Shown here: positions 4,011 through 13,310 of the stretch, in pieces
Numbering within the stretch: the first letter of the stretch is position 1
How the letters are laid out: the number at the start of each line of letters is the position of its first letter
Assembly: GCF_009689005.1 (NCBI RefSeq)
Contig: NZ_AP021879.1
Location: 5,209,724-5,241,723 of the forward strand
Source of the DNA: Desulfosarcina ovata subsp. ovata
Lineage (GTDB): Bacteria; Desulfobacterota; Desulfobacteria; Desulfobacterales; Desulfosarcinaceae
Direction of reading: 5' to 3'
DNA length: 32,000 bases
Translations under genes and position numbers: made by a program
Notes under the pieces: model-generated
The model's database searches: none
What the model was told of the DNA's origin: nothing
Seen by the model: the letters and a program-made list of their open reading frames with translations, nothing else

Positions 4011-4032
4011 GAAGAGAAGATCTTTCGATGTT

Positions 4033-4093
4033 CAACAACGTTACTAATTCAGCCGACGAAAAAAGCCGCGCGGCTGAATTAGTCTTGTTGGGC
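4033..4093 (-). other. attC-like recombination site at the end of the higBA cassette
   Basis: The minus strand reads GCCCAAC (fits RYYYAAC) AAGACTAATTCAGCCG cgcggcttttttcgt CGGCTGAATTAGTAAC GTTGTTG (GTT core). It is a 61-nt imperfect palindrome. The R''-like end overlaps the last codons and stop of higA. Confidence 0.55.
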
Positions 4094-4387
4094 CAAGTGC
4101 TCTGACCAAGGTTTAATCTTATTAAGCAATGGTGCAAGAGTGATTTCTGCAACTTCCGTATCATATGCAGCCTGAGCACGTAGCCAATACCCGTTAGACA
4201 AACCAAAGAAACGGCACAAACGTAAATCCGTATCAGCTGTAATTGAACGTTTATTGGAAACGATCTCACTGATACGCTGGGCGGGAACACCAATCTCCTT
4301 GGCCAAACGATATTGGCTCAGTCCCATAGGCTTTAAGAACTCTTCTAACAAAATTTCACCTGGAGTGACGGGATCAAGTTTTTTCAT
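4079..4387 (-). CDS. higA: HigA-family antitoxin (XRE-type HTH)
   Basis: PGEILLEEFLKPMGLSQYRLAKEIGVPAQRISEIVSNKRSITADTDLRLCRFFG is the typical HigA/VapI HTH pattern. The gene lies 12 nt downstream of the toxin gene. Confidence 0.85.
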   Translation of the reverse strand: MKKLDPVTPGEILLEEFLKPMGLSQYRLAKEIGVPAQRISEIVSNKRSITADTDLRLCRFFGLSNGYWLRAQAAYDTEVAEITLAPLLNKIKPWSEHLAQQD

Positions 4388-4399
4388 ATTAACCTCTCC

Positions 4400-4678
4400 T
4401 CAGTGGTAATCCACGATTTCAACATTTTCTGCACCTGCATCTGTCCAATTGAAACAGACTCGCCACTGATCGTTGATGCGGATGCTGTATTGACCAGCAC
4501 GATCCCCTTTGAGCGCTTCAAGATGATTGCCGGGTGGTACTCTTAAATCATCAAGCAAATTAGCAATTTCGAGCTGCCTGAGCTTGCGCCGAGCGACCTT
4601 TGCAATGTTATTGAATTTCTTGACATTAGTGCCTCTTGATAGCGATTCAGTATATTTGCATTTGAATGATTTAATCAT
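4400..4678 (-). CDS. higB: HigB-family toxin (RelE/ParE superfamily, plasmid maintenance system killer)
   Basis: 92 aa, with the motifs LRVPPGNHLEALKGDRAGQYSIRINDQWRVCF...VEIVDYH characteristic of HigB. The toxin-first gene order is typical of higBA. Confidence 0.85.
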   Translation of the reverse strand: MIKSFKCKYTESLSRGTNVKKFNNIAKVARRKLRQLEIANLLDDLRVPPGNHLEALKGDRAGQYSIRINDQWRVCFNWTDAGAENVEIVDYH

Positions 4679-4685
4679 ATATCAC

Positions 4686-4714
4686 ATAATAACGCATGGC
4701 ATGATTAACGTCAA
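4686..4714 (-). promoter_or_regulatory. Candidate sigma70-type promoter for higBA
   Basis: The minus strand reads TTGACG-17 nt-TATTAT, with the -10 ending 7 nt before the higB ATG (a near-leaderless layout). This is a sequence match only. Confidence 0.3.
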
Positions 4715-4860
4715 ACGTGATTATGATTGCCAACGCCACGCTCATTAACTGCAAGGGCAATGCTGAATTTTAATTTGCCAAGGCCGCCCCGCCCTGGCGG
4801 TCTAATTCCGGGTAAAGGCACCGGTTACCCAATTATCAATTCCTTTGGGCATCATTTTCT

Positions 4861-4907
4861 TTGACAACGATTGAATGTGTATGTATTGTTAGATTGATAC
4901 ATATTCA
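4861..4907 (+). promoter_or_regulatory. Candidate vapBC promoter with overlapping operator-like inverted repeat
   Basis: TTGACA (4861-4866)-17 nt-TATTGT (4884-4889). The inverted repeat TGAATGTGTAT (4872-4882) / ATACATATTCA (4897-4907) brackets the -10. An AAGGAAGG SD precedes ATG 4925. Confidence 0.35.
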
Positions 4908-4924
4908 AGGAAGGCAAAAGAATT

Positions 4925-5119
4925 ATGCGAACCAACATTGTTATCGACGACGAACTTATCAATGAGGCCATGGCACTCAGTCAAATAAAAACGAAAAGGG
5001 CTGTGGTTGAAACAGGGCTCAGGCTTCTGGTTCAAATTAAAAAACAAGAACGGATAAAAAATTTCCGTGGAAAACTGAAATGGGAGGGGCATCTTGATAC
5101 ATTGAGGTCGGATCAATGA
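4925..5119 (+). CDS. vapB: VapB-type antitoxin (type II TA)
   Basis: 64 aa; MRTNIVIDDELINEAMAL... is typical of the small VapB family. The stop overlaps the vapC start (ATGA). Confidence 0.8.
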   Translation: MRTNIVIDDELINEAMALSQIKTKRAVVETGLRLLVQIKKQERIKNFRGKLKWEGHLDTLRSDQ

Positions 5120-5514
5120 TTTTGGTCGACTCATCCGTATGGATCAATTATTTCAATGGACTTTCAACCTGGCAGACAAACCTGCTTGACGACTACCTCT
5201 CCAGCATTCCCATTATTATTGGCGATTTGATTCTGACGGAAGTCCTCCAGGGGTTCAAATCAAACAAAGATTACGAAACCGCCAGGGATTTACTCAGTGC
5301 GCTTCAATTTCGCCAAATTGGGGGATATGCCGTCGCCATCCAAAGTGCTCAAAATTACAGGACCCTCAGAAAATCAGGGGTTACCATTCGAAAAACAATC
5401 GATGTAATCATCGGGACATTTTGTATCATGGAGGGATTATCGCTGCTCCATGATGATCGCGATTTTGACCCGATGGTATCATACCTCAACCTGAAAACAC
5501 CATCTCCGCAGTAA
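5116..5514 (+). CDS. vapC: VapC PIN-domain toxin
   Basis: MILVDSSVWINYF (first acidic PIN residue). Downstream residues (...GDLILTEVLQG..., ...LLHDDRDF...) fit the PIN ribonuclease pattern. There is a 4-nt overlap with vapB. Confidence 0.9.
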   Translation: MILVDSSVWINYFNGLSTWQTNLLDDYLSSIPIIIGDLILTEVLQGFKSNKDYETARDLLSALQFRQIGGYAVAIQSAQNYRTLRKSGVTIRKTIDVIIGTFCIMEGLSLLHDDRDFDPMVSYLNLKTPSPQ

Positions 5515-5516
5515 AA

Positions 5517-5578
5517 GCACCATCACCTGTAAAATCAGTCTCGTCTGAGAAGTAAGTAAGGCTATTGGCGGAAAAGAA
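5517..5578. repeat. Second, shorter copy of the vapC-downstream / ATPase-3'-end junction
   Basis: agcaccatcacctgtaaaatcagtctcgtctgagaagtaa parallels 13447..13486 (tccaccatcacccgtaaaatcagtcccgtctgacaagtaa). About 25 nt of weaker similarity to the ATPase 3' end follows. Confidence 0.5.
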
Positions 5579-5643
5579 TGTCCCCATTAGCCCCAGATCT
5601 AAAATTGTAAACCGGAAATCCGACGAACGTCCCCAATGCCCCC
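5576..5643. repeat. Two REP half-site remnants at the left junction of duplication copy 2
   Basis: gaatGTCCCCAttagCCCC (5576-5594) and gaacGTCCCCAatgCCCCC (5625-5643). Compare gagacGTCCCCAtcctCCCC (3846-3865) and gagacGTCCCCAactgCCCCCC (7706-7727). Confidence 0.4.
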
Positions 5644-6492
5644 GTGATTGCCGATCGCCGACTCGTAGCGTTCGATGGCCTTGGTAATGTATCCCTGCCA
5701 GAAAAGCACTTCGGAGTTGGCCAGGGCCACCTGGACGCGGACGTCAGCGGGGAAATCGTGGTCAGCCAGCATCTGCCAGGCCTGCTCCAGATATTCGTTG
5801 GCTTCGTCGGCCCTGGCGGTTTTGATGTAGGTCTTGGCGATCAGTACCATCAGCCTGACCTTGCGCACGGGGTCACCGACCGTGGCGCAGAATTCAAGCG
5901 ACCGTCCCAGGAATTTTCTCTGGATATCTTTGGACAGCGCTGTGTCCCGGCAGGTACAAAGACCGACGGTGGCATCGATGAAGGTTTCCTGCGCTACCGG
6001 ATCGAGCGTTTCCGTCTCCATGGCGTCCAGGACCATTCGATAATAAGCGGCGGCATCGATCGGCAGGTTCAGGCCAAGGCAGTAGTGCCCCGCCTGGACC
6101 AGTTCCTTGAAATGGCGCACAGGCAAACCGGAAACCTGGTAAACATAAGCGAGACTCAGCCATCTTTTGGTGTCATCGGGCAGGTGGTCGCATACACCGG
6201 CGATGGCCCGCCGGGCGGCGTTGTGCAGCGCCTTCGCCGGAACCCGGCTGATAAAGTCACCCGCCGCCTTGGGATCGGACAGATAGTAGTACCCGGCCCC
6301 CTTTTCCAAATACCGGTGCAAATAACCGGCTTTAACCAACGCCTCGACAAGCTGAAGAACCCGGACCGGGGCCAGGTCGGTAATGGCGCACAGCACATCC
6401 AGGGAAATCGGCGGGGGCAGCAGTGACAGAAGCAGATAAATTTCCTGATTCTTTTCATCCATGCCTGGGAACTGTTCCGCAACCCGGTTCAT
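5599..6492 (-). pseudogene. Truncated duplicate (first 283 codons) of the 970..2691 helical-repeat gene
   Basis: The translation is identical to the N-terminus of the 573-aa protein up to ...ESAIGNH. It then diverges into 14 unrelated residues where the duplication ends (5644). Confidence 0.8.
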
Positions 6493-6551
6493 AATCGGTC
6501 AAAACTCCTTGTCGTCAGCCATCGGTTTGAATCGCTGCCGCGTATCCCAGT

Positions 6552-6637
6552 GGCATAATGGGGACGTCTCTCATTATCGGCATAATGGGGACGTCTCTCA
6601 TTATCTAAATGGCATAATGGGGACGTCTCTCATTATC
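6552..6637. repeat. Tandem array of three REP-like units
   Basis: GGCATAATGGGGACGTCTCTCATTATC occurs at 6552, 6579 and 6611, with unit lengths of 27, 32 and 27 nt. Copy 1 has a single unit at the equivalent place. Confidence 0.9.
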
Positions 6638-7665
6638 TAAATAATTGAATCAATCAGCACGTATCCTTCGCATGCGGCTATGGCTTCGCCTCTTCTAACG
6701 GCATAGCCGATGCCCGACACCGTCATATCAAGTGCCCGGGCAAGCTCGGTTTGGGAAAGGCACAGCTCGCTTGCACACCAGTAGCAAAATAGACCCCGGG
6801 CATCCGCGCGTTTTTTGGGGCGGCCCTTTTGGAATATCTCTTCCTTATCGATCCCAAATAGCTCGGCGACCCTTTCGGCAACACGGTTTATATCGTAGCC
6901 ATGCCGTTTGAGTTCATAGCGCCGTTCAAACCGTTCTTTGGCTTGGGACAAAACCGACAATACAAAATCCGAATCACCAAGAATGCGTTCATCGCCTTTT
7001 ATACGGTCCATTCCTTTCAGTCGCATCTTTTTAACTTCCGACCATCCGCCCAGGCTGCGAACCAATCCTCCCCCGACCAATTCAGGACGACGTCCCATAG
7101 CAACTCCGGCTTGGATATAGTCAAGGTAAGCCTTGCGCGCCTTCGCCACTTTTTTTCCAAAACAGCCAAGAACATAAGCGCCGTCCTGCCAGCTACAATC
7201 ATCGACTCCCACCAATAATCGGTGGCCGCTGAATGGATAATCTGTCAACGCCCTGAAGTCCTCAACCATGCCAGCACGCAATGGATTGAGATGAATATAG
7301 CGCACCAGTTCCAAAAGATAGGCGTCTTCCTGACAAATAATGGATTTGTACCGGTTCTGAAACAACTGGCCGTGGCGTTTATGTCGGCGGTTGAAACTTA
7401 CCGCATATCCGGTGAGCAGCCGCTGCATCAAGCTTACGAGCCCGTCAGGGCCTGAGCGAAATAAAAAATGGGCGTGGTTACTTAGCAAAACCCAAGCATA
7501 ACATCTGGTTTGCGTCTGCGGAACCAACTGATCAAGCCGATCGACAAGATTCTGCTTGTCGGTTGTATCCCGGAAAATGTTTTTTCTTTCGATCCCCCGG
7601 ATGATCACGTGATGCAAAATCCCGGGAGCGTCTAATCGGGCTAACCGTGGCATGGCACCTTTCAT
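6637..7665 (-). CDS. REP-associated tyrosine (HUH/Y1) transposase with C-terminal HTH, copy 2
   Basis: ORF 6637..7875 trimmed to the ATG equivalent to copy 1 (MKGAMPRLARL). It differs from copy 1 at 9 amino acids, with the same HUH and Tyr motifs. The upstream in-frame extension crosses the REP unit and was discarded. Confidence 0.8.
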   Translation of the reverse strand: MKGAMPRLARLDAPGILHHVIIRGIERKNIFRDTTDKQNLVDRLDQLVPQTQTRCYAWVLLSNHAHFLFRSGPDGLVSLMQRLLTGYAVSFNRRHKRHGQLFQNRYKSIICQEDAYLLELVRYIHLNPLRAGMVEDFRALTDYPFSGHRLLVGVDDCSWQDGAYVLGCFGKKVAKARKAYLDYIQAGVAMGRRPELVGGGLVRSLGGWSEVKKMRLKGMDRIKGDERILGDSDFVLSVLSQAKERFERRYELKRHGYDINRVAERVAELFGIDKEEIFQKGRPKKRADARGLFCYWCASELCLSQTELARALDMTVSGIGYAVRRGEAIAACEGYVLIDSII

Positions 7666-7697
7666 AGCAAATGTTGAGAGGCAAATCAAGTTGATTA

Positions 7698-7718
7698 GAT
7701 AATTAGAGACGTCCCCAA
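7698..7718. repeat. REP-like unit at the 5' flank of RAYT copy 2
   Basis: AGATAATTAGAGACGTCCCCA is identical to 3838..3858 as far as the duplication boundary. Confidence 0.7.
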
Positions 7719-7726
7719 CTGCCCCC

Positions 7727-7818
7727 CGACAACCTGCTTTTTGTGAGGCTGCCGGATTTACGAAAGCGTAATTAAACGCTTGCAAATAATACAAAGTTGG
7801 CAAACGCACCGTTGTTTG
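7727..7818 (-). other. Weak attC-like candidate abutting the REP unit
   Basis: The minus strand reads AAACAAC ggtgcgtttgcc ... AAGCGT ttaatt ACGCTT ... cagGTTGTCG. The termini fit the AAC...GTT pattern of the better sites, but stem complementarity is poor. Confidence 0.2.
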
Positions 7819-7919
7819 GTGGTACTTGCGACACAGCCACTTAAAACAAAGCAACGCCTTGAAAAACAGTAACATAAAGCGAAACGGGAGGCAGCCTATG
7901 GCGAAAAATAATTAAAATG

Positions 7920-7981
7920 AAACAACGACTGCCAAAGCGTAAAGCGCTGTTTGCTGCATTCTGCAACAATGTTTGTTGATG
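7920..7981 (-). other. attC-like candidate
   Basis: The minus strand reads CATCAAC AAAcattgttgcagaatGCAGCAAACAGCGctttaCGCTTTGGCAGTC GTTGTTT. It is 62 nt, with the same AACAA...CGTTGT termini as the 4033 and 8191 sites. The stem is imperfect. Confidence 0.3.
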
Positions 7982-8190
7982 CAATGCTGATTTTACCAAA
8001 AAAACCACAAAAAACAAGGCGAGATGTTGCCGAATGCTGAAACAGTGAAACTTTTAAAATGCTTGCCGAAGCTGACGCTCAAAAAAGCAGCAGAAAACGC
8101 CGGCAAAAGCGATAACAGGCAAATATTTGCAACGCTGTTAGAAAAATAAGCGGTGGAAAACACACCCCAAAATTAAGCATGCGAGAAGGT

Positions 8191-8255
8191 TTACAACGCC
8201 CGGCTCTGGGGCTGCATGGAGCGCAGCGTAATGCAGTCCCTAGCAGCCGCTTGTT
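8191..8255 (-). other. attC-like site of the Thoeris-like cassette, larger part (interrupted by the group II intron)
   Basis: The minus strand reads AACAAGCGGCTGCTAGGGACTGCAT tacgctgcgctcc ATGCAGCCCCAGAGCCGGGC GTTGTAA. It is an imperfect palindrome with unpaired bases, as in attC. TTGTT on the plus strand directly precedes the intron 5' end. Confidence 0.5.
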
Positions 8256-10327
8256 GTGTGCCGGGCACGGCACACATCTTAAAAGTGAGCCAAGCATATC
8301 AGTCTGTTGGATCGCTTGGCAAGTCTTAGACCCAGCCCGATGGAGGCGAAGGGTGTAGCGACATGGCAACTGGGTATCCGGCAACGGTGCCTGGGGAGGA
8401 AGCCGCCCTGCTGCGGCAGGGCCGTCGCGAAGGTACGGGGTGACGAACAGAAATCGAGTCAGGCGCGCATCTGTGGGACCAGCCTGCAACACAAGGTTAA
8501 GTCCTCTATCCATCTCAGGCAGTGCTCGTATACTCGGCGCTTACGTACCGAAAGATGTGTGTTTACCCCGGGAGGCCCGCTGCATCTCGGGACTTGTCGT
8601 GTGAAATTGCCGGTAGGGGGGATTCCGGCCACCAAAACCCCCGGCATCGTCGGAAGACCGGCTCCTGACCGGCGATGAGCCAAACTCCGCTATGGAGAGG
8701 GACACGAAACCAAAGGATCCGGCGGCGGCAGATGATCCGAGTGAGCAAACCGCAAGGTGCGCCCACCGTGCAGCGGGAGTCAGCAGAGGGCATAATGTAA
8801 CCGGAGGAAACGAGATGCGCGAGCTACCCGCGGGTCAAGCGTAACAGGAGGCTCACCCCGGTGAAAGGCCCGAACGGTGCCCGGCCCGAATGGTACGGGT
8901 AAATGAAAATGACCATTAGGAGACGTGTACTTATGAACATAAAGCCACAGCAGATGGAAATGTTTGTAGCGTCGCGGCTTGCCGAAAGTCTGGGAGGCAG
9001 AGAGCAGTTGTTGGAGTTGATTCTCGAACGACGTAATGTGCTCAGAGCAATGAACCAGGTCGTTGCCAATAAAGGCGCCCCGGGTGTGGACGGCATGAAA
9101 ACCAACCACTTGAAAGGGTACCTGAAAAGGCACTGGCCGAAGATCAAGCAGGACCTGCTAAATGGGGATTATCGTCCCTTACCGGTCAGAAGGAAGGAGA
9201 TCGACAAACCGGATGGCGGTGTCCGCCTGCTTGGTATCCCCACGGTATTGGACCGCCTTATCCAACAGACGATAGCTCAGGTATTGGAGCAGATCTGGGA
9301 CCCGACCTTTTCTGAGTACAGCTACGGATTCAGACCAGGACGATCAGCCCATGACGCTGTCCTACAAGCCAAAGGCTATCTGCTGGACGGGTACACCCAC
9401 GTGGTTGACATGGATTTGTCCAAGTTTTTTGACCGAGTTAACCACGACCGGCTTTTAAGCCGGCTGGCCACCAGGGTCCGGGACAAACGGGTCTTGAAAT
9501 TGATCCGCCGGTACCTTACGGCCGGAACGATGATCGGGGGGCTTGTCAGTCCCAGCATAGAAGGAACGCCCCAGGGTGGTCCTCTGTCGCCGTTGCTCTC
9601 CAACATCGTACTCGATGAACTGGATAAGGAATTGGAGAAGCGGGGTCACCAATTCGTCAGGTATGCTGACGACTTCAGGATCTACTGCAAAAGCCGGAAA
9701 GCCGCCGAGCGTGTGAACAAGAGCATCACGAAGTTCATCACCGCGAAGCTCAAGCTCAAGGTGAACGAGGAGAAAAGCGCAGTGAGCCGACCATGGCTCC
9801 GCAAATTCCTGGGATTTACCTTTATCAGTATGTGTGGACAGACCAAGATCCGGATCCACCGGAAAACAATTTCACGTTTCAAGGAGCGAGTCCGGGAACT
9901 GACGAACCGTAATCAAGGGAGAAGTCTGAGCCAGATTATCAAAGATCTGAATCAGTACCTGATTGGCTGGTGGAACTATTATCGCCTGACAGAAGCCAGG
10001 CACCTGTTCAAGTCACTCAATGGCTGGATCATCCGCCGGCTGCGGTGCGTTGTCTGGAAACAATGGAAAAACCCCAGGACCAAGGTCCGAAACCTCAAAA
10101 AGCTTGGCATTGCGCATAAGGACGCCATGCTTTGCGGTAACGCCCGCAAAAAGTACTGGCGCATGAGCAAGGTCAAGTGGGTGATATTTGCTCTACCAAA
10201 CCGTTACTTCTTCGAACGAGGACTATTCCTGCCTGCTCAATAACCTTCCTGATCAGCCGAACCGCCTTGGTACGCGATCCGTATGCCGGGTGGTGTGGGA
10301 GGGGGTGGCCGCGAGGCTACTCCCTAT
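8256..10327 (+). mobile_element. Group II intron, bacterial class C (IIC, attC-targeting type); 3' end approximate
   Basis: The 5' end is GTGTGCCGGGCACGG. Domain V (10259-10297) reads GAACCGCCTTGGTACGCGATCCGTATGCCGGGTGGTGTG. From memory, both resemble the Oceanobacillus iheyensis IIC intron (GUGUGCCCGGCAUGG...; DV GAACCGCC...GGUGGUGUG with a CGC triad). Domain VI reads GGGAGG...GCUACUCCCUAU with a candidate bulged A. The RT ORF sits where domain IV is expected. Confidence 0.8.
8903..10243 (+). CDS. Group II intron reverse transcriptase/maturase (no endonuclease domain)
   Basis: RT blocks are present, including GVDGM, LGIPTVLDRLIQQ, SYGFRPGRSAHDA and the catalytic RYADDFRIY, followed by a maturase X-like tail (LIGWWNYY). 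Its short length fits En-less class C proteins. An alternative start is ATG 8933, preceded by AGGAG. Confidence 0.9.
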   Translation: MKMTIRRRVLMNIKPQQMEMFVASRLAESLGGREQLLELILERRNVLRAMNQVVANKGAPGVDGMKTNHLKGYLKRHWPKIKQDLLNGDYRPLPVRRKEIDKPDGGVRLLGIPTVLDRLIQQTIAQVLEQIWDPTFSEYSYGFRPGRSAHDAVLQAKGYLLDGYTHVVDMDLSKFFDRVNHDRLLSRLATRVRDKRVLKLIRRYLTAGTMIGGLVSPSIEGTPQGGPLSPLLSNIVLDELDKELEKRGHQFVRYADDFRIYCKSRKAAERVNKSITKFITAKLKLKVNEEKSAVSRPWLRKFLGFTFISMCGQTKIRIHRKTISRFKERVRELTNRNQGRSLSQIIKDLNQYLIGWWNYYRLTEARHLFKSLNGWIIRRLRCVVWKQWKNPRTKVRNLKKLGIAHKDAMLCGNARKKYWRMSKVKWVIFALPNRYFFERGLFLPAQ

Positions 10328-10362
10328 CCCGATAGGTGCAATCAGGCTATTAGTGAAAGGAA
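10328..10362 (-). other. Residual R''-side stub of the split attC, between the thsB-like stop and the intron 3' end
   Basis: 35 nt lie between the inferred intron end (…CTCCCTAT) and the TAA of the TIR-like gene. Joining it to 8255 restores ...GGG|AACAAGC, comparable to GCCC AACAAGA of the higA attC. Confidence 0.35.
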
Positions 10363-10932
10363 TTAACAAGGATAAAAGTACTCATCAGCCTCTTTCTTTG
10401 TATTTACCATAAAACCTTCATTTTCAAGCGCTTTTTTGATTAACGCTTTTTTGTTGGGAATATGGAGCGTTGGAACTGAATCCATTGAATCTCGGAATTT
10501 GGGCAATTTATCCCAAAGGTCTTTTATCTGCTTCTTGATCGTTTTCGATTGACAGTTAATGATGTCTGATTTTTCTTTATACTCTGGGTATACAACTATA
10601 ACCGGCAAGCCCAATGTATTAATGCCGTAGTCAATCTCTTCACGAATTGCCTTAGAGCTCTTCGTTACTGAACTTAAGAACAGTACTATGTTTTTGGATT
10701 TGCTTAGCCGCTCTCTAATTCTTGGCTTTAACGTTTTTTCCCAATCACTGCCATCTCTAACATTATAGTTTTTGTTGTGAGAATCATTAAATGGGAACGC
10801 AGAGTCGCCACCTTTCCAAGCTCTTAACATGCTATAGCTTACGAAGTCTTTCGTTGCATGAGCACCCAAACCTCCTTCAGTAAAAGGTTCGCTGACGTAA
10901 AACGCTGAATAGTTTCCGTTGCGATATGCCAT
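10363..10932 (-). CDS. thsB: TIR-like (DUF1863 / ThsB-type) protein
   Basis: The pattern YSAFYVSEP...YSMLRAWK...FPFNDSH...LKPRIRERLSKSKNIVLFLSSVTKSSKAIREEIDYGI..LGLPVIVVYPEY fits the ThsB / MTH538 TIR-like family layout. A strong AGGAGG SD precedes ATG 10932. The gene is AT-rich. Confidence 0.7.
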   Translation of the reverse strand: MAYRNGNYSAFYVSEPFTEGGLGAHATKDFVSYSMLRAWKGGDSAFPFNDSHNKNYNVRDGSDWEKTLKPRIRERLSKSKNIVLFLSSVTKSSKAIREEIDYGINTLGLPVIVVYPEYKEKSDIINCQSKTIKKQIKDLWDKLPKFRDSMDSVPTLHIPNKKALIKKALENEGFMVNTKKEADEYFYPC

Positions 10933-10974: not shown

Positions 10975-11811
10975 TTAAAGCCCATTGTTGGACGATTTAA
11001 TATCGAGTAAATTAATAGTATCCATTTTATCTGGATGAATAATAATAGTTAGCTTTGCTGGATACTTGAATCGCATCTCACTAATCCTGAATGTCCAAAG
11101 CATGATCTTAAGCAAGTCTTCATCACTGATATTTTTGTGTTCTTTAATCCGCGTTATTCCTGATCCAAAAATCGGTACCGAAACGCTTTTTTGTGCGTAG
11201 ACTCTATTTACCCTGTCCCAGAAGTTAATAAGAAAGCTGAGATATTCCGGCATCGTTAACCGAGCTCGGTTTTTATCATCAAATTTCGAAAAAGCTGTTA
11301 AAAGATACTCACCATATACACAAATGGAGCCAATTTCGAAACGAGTCTTTTTCCCGCTCTTTCTCTCCGGATTTTCGCCAACAACATCTTCATCTTCGAA
11401 AGGATAGTTTTCGATATGACGATCAAGATCAACAACCGAGGTGTCAAGATGGCTATTAATGAATATGCCGTTCAGTGAGTTGCTAGATATAATTTTGTCA
11501 TCCACTTGCGTATCTAAATATTCATTAAATGCTATGACTTTAAAATCAGGTTGCTCAAATATATCCCCTTTTTTTATCGTGACATCACTTCCCTCGATTT
11601 TAGTGTGAATCTGCTGCAAGTTGTTAGATCTGACCCACAGAGCCACATAAACGAATAAAAGTAATATTAGAAATATGCCGCCCACCGCGAGCTTGCACTC
11701 TTTGGGTATCTCAACAAATATAAATGTAAGCGATGCCACTACACTTATTACAGAGACAACTTCAAGAAATTGCCTGAAAATTCTCTTATCCAGAAAATTT
11801 ACCTTTGCCAA
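10975..11811 (-). CDS. thsA: Membrane-anchored Macro-like domain protein (type II ThsA-like effector)
   Basis: Two N-terminal hydrophobic helices (VVSVISVVASLTFIFV; LAVGGIFLILLLFVYVALWV), then macro-like landmarks: KKGDIF, KVIAFNEYLDTQVD, PIFGSGITR. The start is TTG, with AGGGAG upstream. A 42-nt gap separates it from the TIR-like gene. Confidence 0.6.
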   Translation of the reverse strand: MAKVNFLDKRIFRQFLEVVSVISVVASLTFIFVEIPKECKLAVGGIFLILLLFVYVALWVRSNNLQQIHTKIEGSDVTIKKGDIFEQPDFKVIAFNEYLDTQVDDKIISSNSLNGIFINSHLDTSVVDLDRHIENYPFEDEDVVGENPERKSGKKTRFEIGSICVYGEYLLTAFSKFDDKNRARLTMPEYLSFLINFWDRVNRVYAQKSVSVPIFGSGITRIKEHKNISDEDLLKIMLWTFRISEMRFKYPAKLTIIIHPDKMDTINLLDIKSSNNGL

Positions 11812-11867: not shown

Positions 11868-11874
11868 ACCTAAC
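11868..11874 (-). other. Candidate attI core / cassette junction (GTTAGGT)
   Basis: The minus strand reads GTTAGGT, a perfect fit to the integron core GTTRRRY. It sits between the first cassette ORF and the intI promoter. GTATAAC/GTTATAC repeats at 11894, 11958 and 11978 could be accessory binding sites. Confidence 0.35.
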
Positions 11875-12002: not shown

Positions 12003-13310
12003 ATGAAAGCTATTCCAAACCACCTACAAGCATCCTATGATGCGTATTTGACCGCAAAAGGCATTCCTAAGCAGCACCATTTCAATTATAGAAAGTGGTT
12101 GCGTTATTATCTGGACTTTTGCTCAAAATATGGACACATTCATTCCAACCCGCAAAGCCTGATTCAATTTGGCAATAAGCTGAAGGAAAAGAAACAGACA
12201 GCCTGGCAAATCAGGCAGGCGTCAGATGCAATTGCAATTTATTACGAAATTCAGGAACAAAAACAGGGGCCTCAATATAAATTTCACCAAGTAAACGAAA
12301 AAACAACCCAATTTACAATAAAAAAAGAAACCCCCAAAGCTCAAAACGCCGATTGGACGAACGTCTTCAAAGGTTTGACATCGGAAATAAAGCTAAGGCA
12401 CTACTCACCAAAAACGTTGGCCTCTTATAGCGGTTGGGCGCGAAAACTGCAAAGCTTTGTGAAGAGCAAAGATCCTAAACTGCTGTCATCCCAGGATGTT
12501 AAAAAATTTTTAACCCATCTGGCAGTGGAACGAAATGTATCCGCGTCCAGCCAAAACCAAGCTTTCAATGCACTTCTGTTTCTTTATCGGCACGTTCTTA
12601 AAACCGAATTCGGTGAATTAAAAAATATTCCCAGGGCCAAACGGAAACCCTATATACCTGCCGTATTATCTCGCGAAGAGGTTGACGCGGTTATTGGAAT
12701 GCTCCATGAACCGTTCGATTTAGTTGCCAAGCTGCTCTATGGATGCGGGCTTCGTTTATCTGAATGCCTGCGGCTACGTGTCCAGGACATCAACTTTGAA
12801 AGTGGCGTTCTGACCATCCACGACGGAAAGGGGAAAAAGGATCGTTCTGTTCCTCTTCCGAAGACGATCATTTCGGAACTAAAAATCCAGCTGGAAAAAA
12901 TCGTCGAGTTACACCAAAAGGACCTGGATATCGGATATGGCGGAACATTTCTTGTGGGAAGACTGGATAAGAAATACAAAAATGCAGCTAAAGAATTGGT
13001 GTGGCAGTGGTTTTTCCCAGCGAAAAACTTGACGCTTGTTCCCGATGAAGGCCAATACAGACGATACCACCTGCACCCTACCCACGTTCAAAAAGCCATA
13101 AGAACCGCCGTAAGAACGGCGAAAATTCCCAAGCGCGCATCGGCACACACGTTTCGTCACAGCTATGCAAGCCATTTGCTATTGGCCAACTATGACATCC
13201 GTACCATTCAGAAACTCCTTGGCCACAGCGATGTGCGCACAACCATGATTTACACCCACACAATAGAAAGCCGTACCATTAAAGACGCCGCCAGTCCGCT
13301 TGATTTTTAA
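12003..13310 (+). CDS. intI: Integron integrase (IntI-type tyrosine recombinase) with ~115-aa N-terminal extension
   Basis: It aligns along its length with IntI1 as remembered. Shared blocks include LYGCGLRLSECLRLRVQDI, HTFRHSYASHLL and LGHSDVRTTMIYTH. The IntI-specific insertion is present: LDKKYKNAAKELVWQWFFPAKNLTLVPDEGQYRRYHLHPTHVQ (IntI1: [41 protein letters not shown]). Confidence 0.9.
   Translation: MKAIPNHLQASYDAYLTAKGIPKQHHFNYRKWLRYYLDFCSKYGHIHSNPQSLIQFGNKLKEKKQTAWQIRQASDAIAIYYEIQEQKQGPQYKFHQVNEKTTQFTIKKETPKAQNADWTNVFKGLTSEIKLRHYSPKTLASYSGWARKLQSFVKSKDPKLLSSQDVKKFLTHLAVERNVSASSQNQAFNALLFLYRHVLKTEFGELKNIPRAKRKPYIPAVLSREEVDAVIGMLHEPFDLVAKLLYGCGLRLSECLRLRVQDINFESGVLTIHDGKGKKDRSVPLPKTIISELKIQLEKIVELHQKDLDIGYGGTFLVGRLDKKYKNAAKELVWQWFFPAKNLTLVPDEGQYRRYHLHPTHVQKAIRTAVRTAKIPKRASAHTFRHSYASHLLLANYDIRTIQKLLGHSDVRTTMIYTHTIESRTIKDAASPLDF

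Follow-up and report, generated by a model that had tools for sequence, protein, structure and literature searches.

What is the 2-kb element that separates a Thoeris defence cassette from the rest of an integron array in the chromosome of Desulfosarcina ovata subsp. ovata, and what determined the exact position at which it lies? The locus is found in a 32,000-nt stretch of sequence NZ_AP021879.1, which is referred to here as the window, and the survey for further copies covered the whole 7.63-Mb genome. We interpret positions 8256-10333 of the window (plus strand) as a complete, functional-looking and mobile class C group II intron of the type that homes to the attC sites of integron cassettes, and from comparison of sequences we place the probability of this interpretation at roughly 0.9. 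The element type and its antisense homing to attC are already known. What is added here is a variant whose insertion register differs by one base, together with a corrected 3' boundary.

Ten full-length copies of the intron were found within the genome. They are 96-100% identical and align exactly over nucleotides 1-2078 (8256-10333 in the window), beginning with GTGTG and ending with CCCGAT. Identity is 100% in four copies, 99.95% in five and 96% in one, the flanking sequence differs at every insertion site, and an open reading frame (ORF) of 446-447 aa for the intron-encoded protein (IEP) is kept in all ten. About a dozen intron fragments are present besides the full copies. Two of the 100%-identical copies abut head to tail as CCCGAT/GTGTG (3598484-3602639; the slash marks a junction here and in the site notations below), 4.7 kb from an integron integrase gene (intI). 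A group II intron on the plus strand had been predicted from the window sequence with a 5' end at 8256 (GTGTGCC), right after TTGTT and behind an imperfect hairpin (8195-8255), and that end stands. The 3' end, originally put at 10327, fell 6 nt short, as the ten-copy alignment and the head-to-tail pair both place it at 10333. The branch-site A that bulges from domain VI is at position 10326, and is probably the source of the earlier boundary. The distance from the intron to the stop of the neighboring thsB gene, given before as about 35 nt, is 29 nt.

The IEP is the sole long ORF of the intron (8903 or 8933 to 10243, plus strand). It comprises 436 aa, or 446 aa if translation begins at the in-frame ATG at 8903, and an AGGAGG sequence upstream of 8933 is conserved among the aligned relatives. 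Profile searches identified a reverse transcriptase (RT) domain with a YADD motif (RVT_1, 2.3e-44, residues 100-307 of the 446 aa) and a maturase (X) domain (GIIM, 5.1e-22, residues 324-401), and the protein matches the NCBIfam group II RT/maturase family TIGR04416 with 428 bits. For an endonuclease (En) domain, no HNH match was obtained in the profile search at E<=0.01; RVT_1 and GIIM alone were detected, in agreement with the En-less protein that had been proposed. When compared with proteins of known structure in PDB, the IEP scored 489 bits with the GsI-IIC RT, 374 bits with the protein of the E. rectale IIC ribonucleoprotein and 289-293 bits with the R. intestinalis and E. rectale RT domains, versus 142 bits with LtrA (IIA) and 141 bits with T.el4h (IIB). 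Because the similarity to class C proteins coincides with the lack of an En domain and with a CGC triad in domain V, the assignment to class C can be considered settled. In the phylogeny, which contained no non-C outgroup, the IEP likewise falls among class C introns, including S.ma.I2, the type intron of the group termed IIC-attC.

Within the RNA, the core of domain I (8375-8562, plus strand) matches the Rfam model group-II-D1D4-3 (RF02001; 82.6 bits, gathering score 32). To delimit domains V and VI, the 3' ends of 18 family members were aligned and examined for covariation. Domain V (10261-10294, plus strand) carries the CGC triad at 10263-10265, as had been noted earlier; its central pair is G.U, and two nucleotides bulge out of the 3' strand of the domain. 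In domain VI (10297-10330, plus strand) the branch-site A at 10326 is bulged and precedes the 3' splice site by 7 nt. The triad pairs (C-G, G.U and C-G) are invariant across the 18 sequences, while the helix pairs show compensatory changes. In domains V and VI 93% of cells are paired, compared with 43-50% when the partners are slid against each other. Double-sided changes occur in 12 pairs of the two domains (9 of the 14 pairs in domain VI), and none of 500 shuffles matched either the observed percentage paired or the covariation score.

The intron splits the attC of the Thoeris cassette, which is the first cassette of the array. The main part of this attC forms the 5' exon (8191-8255, minus strand, from fold and motif positions), with R' at 8191-8197. 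Read on the cassette strand from 8255 to 8191, it runs AAC-AAG-L''-loop-L'-GGC-GTTGTAA as an imperfect palindrome. The bottom strand of the site, which is the plus strand of the window, folds into a hairpin whose 3' arm has two bulged bases, at -17.9 kcal/mol for the DNA fold and -14.5 kcal/mol for a constrained fold. The 3' exon, placed by the junction from the copy comparison, starts with AGGT (10334-10337, plus strand; ACCT on the cassette strand), which is the rest of the R'' core. The insertion therefore separates GTT from AGGT within R'' on the bottom strand of the attC and is antisense to the cassette. Removal of the intron leaves an attC of 69 nt whose restored R'', ACCTAAC, is the exact complement of GTTAGGT, the core at the cassette start (11868-11874, minus strand, read from the sequence at the attI/cassette-1 junction, with the cut at G/TTAGGT). 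Such complementarity is expected of a cassette integrated by IntI, and the Thoeris cassette possesses an ordinary and complete attC once the intron is taken out.

The original prediction passes both of the checks proposed for it: removal of the intron restores an attC, and the IEP stays within class C in the phylogeny. Two details change. Excision of 8256-10327, as first proposed, would keep 6 bases of the intron in the site. Also, the termini AACAAG…CGTTGT that removal was thought to reconstitute are both already in the 5' exon; what removal of 8256-10333 does restore is the R'' core, ACCT/AAC.

Read along the cassette strand, the GTTAGGT core is followed by thsA, thsB, 29 nt that end with ACCT, the intron in antisense and the remainder of the attC. 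The first gene, thsA (10975-11811, minus strand), is of the Macro-domain type (PF20016, 4.2e-64; PADLOC ThsA, 422.7 bits) and the second, thsB (10363-10932, minus strand), is TIR-like (PF08937, 7.3e-26; PADLOC ThsB, 252.8 bits). With the intron on the plus strand and both genes on the minus strand, the antisense orientation noted earlier is evident. The integrase gene intI (12003-13310, plus strand; TIGR02249, 370.9 bits versus a cut-off of 265) is divergent from the cassettes.

How the intron recognizes this position could be deduced from its exons. All 5' exons of the copies within the genome end in KGTT, and the 3' exons start mostly with a purine (A in six of the ten, C or G in the rest). 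Nothing further upstream of KGTT is conserved, many copies having only a hairpin there, so an intron-binding site 2 (IBS2) is absent. The target architecture is thus a hairpin followed by an IBS1 of 3-4 nt and by IBS3, without IBS2. IBS1, TGTT, corresponds to the final four bases of the 5' exon (8252-8255, plus strand) and covaries with exon-binding site 1 (EBS1). EBS1 is AACA (8488-8491, plus strand), located in the loop GCAACACAA and pairing with IBS1 as UGUU. EBS3 is the U at 8531 (plus strand) in the context CGUAUAC; its partner is the base that opens the 3' exon (A or G), which in the window copy is A10334 (IBS3).

These assignments were made because of covariation across two sets of relatives. 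Members of the first set, including the window intron, are inserted at KGTT followed by mostly a purine, and have the EBS1 loop GCAACACAA and the EBS3 context CGUAUAC. Members of the second set are inserted at TTGT or TGGT followed by T, with the EBS1 loop GCACAACAA or GCACCACAA and the EBS3 context CGUAAAC. An EBS1 of AACA with an EBS3 of U hence goes with KGTT/R, ACAA with A goes with TTGT/T, and ACCA with A goes with TGGT/T. EBS3 is A where the 3' exon begins with T, in agreement with the GUAAA of the Rfam consensus. One relative, L048, carries the EBS and IBS of the second set on a backbone of the first set, which argues that the covariation is functional and not merely inherited.

For IIC-attC introns the majority site is TTGT/T (IBS1/IBS3), although this is not a strict criterion (PMC7923331). 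The window intron does not use the majority register; it is inserted at TTGTT/A, one base 3' of it. TTGT/T is used by the sister sub-lineages L024, L025, L034, L048 and L051, as well as by S.ma.I2 and by the intron in the attC of blaIMP-4. From these alignments, part of the Desulfobacterales clade, the window copy included, appears to have moved its insertion point one base in the 3' direction through matched changes in EBS1 and EBS3.

The junction of the tandem copies described above (3598484-3602639) presents GAT, a poor IBS1. Tandems are also found in Desulfoluna-type relatives (two loci), where the intron end CCCGTT mimics an IBS1 behind the domain VI hairpin.

Insertion of the intron near integrons is not confined to the window. 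Five integron integrases score above the curated cut-off in the genome (208198, 3592804, 5222095, which is that of the window, 5891329 and 7252668; two of the five give identical scores), and each of the five genes has at least one intron copy on its cassette side. Eight of the ten full copies lie at a distance of 2-35 kb from an intI, on its cassette side, in a zone amounting to ~2.3% of the genome, and all of these are antisense. About six of the 5' exons are sites of the form AAC-spacer-bulged hairpin-spacer-GTT. Relatives in other Desulfobacterales, with IEP identities of 69-92%, sit in attC-like hairpins as well, while relatives at 52-59% IEP identity and plasmid-borne class C introns follow perfect GC hairpins with T-runs, that is, intrinsic terminators. 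The anatomy of the site, the distribution of the copies and the sites of the Desulfobacterales relatives all support the antisense homing to attC bottom strands that had been suggested from the window alone. The second recognizable attC of the window array (4030-4093, minus strand, from a motif and fold scan) has AACAAG…CGTTGT termini like that of cassette 1. When the two window attCs were used as blastn queries, only four partial matches were found elsewhere in the genome, because attCs are heterogeneous.

Other elements were encountered during the genome survey. An attC-like hairpin 76 kb from the window holds a 212-nt remnant of the intron that has an internal deletion (5296873-5297084), and a second class C intron family with ~70% nucleotide identity is present near the first integron (224964-239436). 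A tyrosine-recombinase-like ORF of 308 aa is repeated six times (213227, 3602928, 4698707, 5888303, 7138372 and 7265094). Four of its copies are within integron regions and one is ~290 nt from the tandem introns, and this ORF may represent another element that targets cassette arrays.

The closest known system is S.ma.I2, which is inserted in the aadB attC of a class 1 integron on pSCH909 of Serratia marcescens SCH909. Like the window intron, S.ma.I2 has a class C RNA (RF02001), an IEP lacking En and a CGC domain V, and it lies antisense in the bottom-strand attC of the first cassette, within the R'' core, beside a divergent intI. The order on pSCH909 (intI1, aadB, antisense S.ma.I2, next cassette) is that of the window. 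However, the IEPs are only 48.9% identical and domain I is barely alignable. S.ma.I2 starts with GTACG and inserts at TTGT/TAGGC, whereas the window intron starts with GTGTG and inserts at TTGTT/AGGT with matching changes in EBS1 and EBS3. Moreover, S.ma.I2 is present as a single copy on a resistance plasmid, in contrast to ten copies across the five chromosomal integrons of a genome of the sulfate-reducer type. The intron in the blaIMP-4 attC of Klebsiella pneumoniae pIMP-1495, which we take to be Kl.pn.I3, is likewise of class C and antisense in an attC. It differs in its IEP (51.9% identity), in its use of the published TTGT/T register and in belonging to a clinical mobile integron.

Class C introns that home to terminators (the B.h.I1/GsI-IIC type) resemble the window intron in RNA class, protein architecture and IEP sequence (52-59% identity), have a similar 5' end (GTGTGCCGGGCA) and also use a hairpin with an IBS1 of 3-4 nt. 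The set examined consisted of an intron on an Anoxybacillus plasmid, which was placed by its RF02001 score and IEP similarity, introns on Escherichia coli and Providencia plasmids, and loci L032-L045 from metagenome-assembled genomes (MAGs). Their targets differ in being perfect GC-rich hairpins with T-runs, usually in the sense orientation relative to the upstream gene, with a T-rich IBS1 and T as IBS3. The IS1111-attC elements (ISPa21, ISPst6) also target attC, antisense to the array and near the attC 5' end, and may carry outward promoters (PMC3001079). Unlike the window intron, these are DNA transposons with a transposase, having no ribozyme and no target recognition by base pairing.

A class C intron was additionally seen between aadA1 and qacEdelta1 in a class 1 integron of the Vibrio parahaemolyticus IncC plasmid pVb0499 (1-3582). 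This intron is in the sense orientation with a 3' exon starting TAGATGCACTAAGC, and is inserted at GT/TAGAT in the top-strand R' core, on the opposite strand from IIC-attC introns.

Phylogenetic relationships were analyzed in a careful IQ-TREE run with 35 IEPs, in which S.ma.I2 and the blaIMP-4 intron were the only published-type references; G.s.I1, N.e.I1 and the Shewanella introns were left out. Three plasmid candidates for additional IIC-attC references (E. coli pAA-type, Providencia and Serratia IncC) were discarded, as they are not in integrons. The Desulfobacterales attC-homing clade, which includes the window intron, received support of 100/100. The S.ma.I2 clade received 100/99, and the blaIMP-4 intron grouped with S.ma.I2 at 97/93. 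In the careful and the quick best trees alike, both antisense attC-homing clades are found on one side of a branch. The attC-associated IEPs have been reported to form a monophyletic subset within class C (PMC3001079), and membership of the window intron in this published lineage is compatible with the sequence data.

Several results count against the interpretation of the element as a functional attC-homing intron of the published kind. The union of the window clade with S.ma.I2, the blaIMP-4 intron and a further intron (L022_5932, discussed below) is supported at only 76/57. Four or five of the insertion sites in the genome are not attC-like (245464, 1407880, 4713263 and 5981277 among them), meaning that insertion specificity is relaxed; relaxed specificity has been reported for IIC-attC introns (PMC7923331). 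A census of AAC…hairpin…GTT sites around the other four integrons gave ~12 matches per 45 kb everywhere and was dropped as unspecific. The Rfam model RF00029 (domains V/VI) had no match in the window even at E<=1, and the D1D4-1 model remained below threshold. The silence of RF00029 is uninformative, because that model also misses S.ma.I2, the GsI-IIC-like intron and other class C introns. Lastly, the -10 element of a candidate outward promoter, which is described below, is not conserved in relatives.

The alternative that survives best concerns the ancestry of the intron and not its nature. The Desulfobacterales clade could have acquired attC homing a second time, arising from terminator-homing class C introns independently of the S.ma.I2 lineage, in which case the window intron would be an analogue of IIC-attC introns and not a member. 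We regard this as possible but less likely than not. In its favor, besides the 76/57 branch, nhmmer searches place domain I of the window intron closer to terminator types (E 1e-19 to 6e-11) than to S.ma.I2 and the blaIMP-4 intron (E 0.006-0.013), and its IEP is more similar to the terminator types than to these two introns. It is also consistent with the occurrence of both lineages side by side in one array. Yet both best trees place the two antisense attC-homing clades together on one side, both lineages use the identical R'' core and strand, and long branches (0.83 for S.ma.I2) could account for the lower identities.

The array in question belongs to a Desulfobacterales MAG (L022:2467-7305). 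Each of two successive attCs is occupied by a class C intron of a different lineage, both oriented alike, the window type at GGTT/AGGC and an S.ma.I2-type at GATTGT/GTGCG, with one antisense gene between them.

It is less probable, and in our view rather unlikely, that the element has become an inert relic, unable to splice or move. In favor of a relic, the intron has ~160 extra nt between domain I and the D2/D3 region (8578-8738, plus strand), which are absent from 15 aligned relatives. The segment folds no better than shuffled sequence (z +0.57), and no separate copies of it were found in the genome. The RF02001 score of 82.6 bits is also lower than in relatives and in all known class C introns tried (115-143 bits; 117-143 bits for S.ma.I2 and the GsI-IIC-like intron), which is partly attributable to insertions. 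A relic would not, however, be expected as nine copies of 99.95-100% identity at different sites, nor with the IEP reading frame open in all ten copies and with the YADD motif, the domain V triad and the branch-site A all intact. The near-identity of the copies indicates an element that, judged by its sequence, has been active recently.

Still more doubtful is the notion of a generic hairpin-targeting class C intron that landed in the attC by chance. Class C introns do target hairpins in general, and the four copies with listed coordinates above have no attC-like 5' exon. Chance would not readily place eight of ten copies, all antisense, in ~2.3% of the genome beside intI genes, nor would it match EBS1 and EBS3 to the conserved R'' core, and across the clade the sites in other genomes are attC-like, versus the hairpins with T-runs used by outgroups.

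Finally, that the locus is a cassette in the making, in which a copy behind the thsB terminator recombined with a copy in an orphan attC and thereby joined the Thoeris genes to an attC (the Leon and Roy model, described in PMC7923331), can be rejected as highly improbable, for even though the genome has copies both in attC sites and elsewhere, as that model requires, the AGGT on the thsB side completes an R'' perfectly complementary to the GTTAGGT at attI, as would be the case for a mature, IntI-integrated cassette that was invaded later but not for a chance junction of gene and terminator.

Returning to the attC-homing intron as the preferred interpretation, its insertion can be envisaged as follows from the established biology of class C and En-less introns. 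The intron RNA, together with its RT/maturase, would recognize the folded hairpin of the attC bottom strand. EBS1 (AACA) would pair with the TGTT that ends in the GTT of R'', EBS3 (U8531) would pair with the next base, A10334, and the intron would then reverse-splice into the DNA. Because no endonuclease is encoded, copying is proposed to proceed from a host replication primer.

Several consequences for the array would follow. Being antisense, the intron could not be removed from the Pc transcript, and 2 kb of antisense DNA would separate the rest of the array from cassette 1. As only the GTT of R'' is left beside the hairpin, the action of IntI on this attC should be impaired. Crippled recognition by IntI would probably freeze the Thoeris cassette in the first position.

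An outward promoter has been described in domain I/II of S.ma.I2, and the published P1out is located in domain I (PMC3001079). A consensus scan of the window intron returned two sites where 0.6 were expected. The candidate resembling P1out, TTGCCA-18-TATGCT with a TG extension (8293-8322, minus strand), identified by consensus match alone, is in domain I, a place like that of P1out, and points out of the intron 5' end toward the next cassette. The intron may supply a promoter for the DNA downstream of it.

In the 4.1-kb stretch between the two recognizable attCs (4094-8196) lie a TPR gene fragment, toxin-antitoxin-like ORFs and a RAYT, which has a Y1 transposase domain and a DnaA-C helix-turn-helix and reaches 71.6 bits with NF047646, narrowly missing the 80-bit cut-off. 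The stretch opens with TTGTAA, which lacks complementarity to the R'' (GCCCAAC) of the attC at 4030-4093, and hence the stretch is not a simple single cassette.

Few elements apart from IIC-attC introns are known to reshape integron arrays, and a role in the creation of cassettes has been proposed for these introns. The intron described here extends attC homing from proteobacterial integrons, mostly those carrying resistance genes, to the sedentary integrons of a Desulfosarcina genome and their anti-phage cassettes. We tentatively raise the further suggestion, based on the sequences compared here, that it represents an undescribed, Desulfobacterales-centered lineage of attC-homing class C introns, either sister to or independent of the S.ma.I2 lineage. 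Such a lineage would switch register between GT/TRRRY and GTT/RRRY by paired changes in EBS1 and EBS3, would have entered every integron of one genome and would perhaps lock a defence cassette in the best-expressed position by splitting R''. The close relatives that insert one base apart, each with EBS1 and EBS3 matched to its own register, amount to a natural experiment on how class C introns measure their target against a hairpin.

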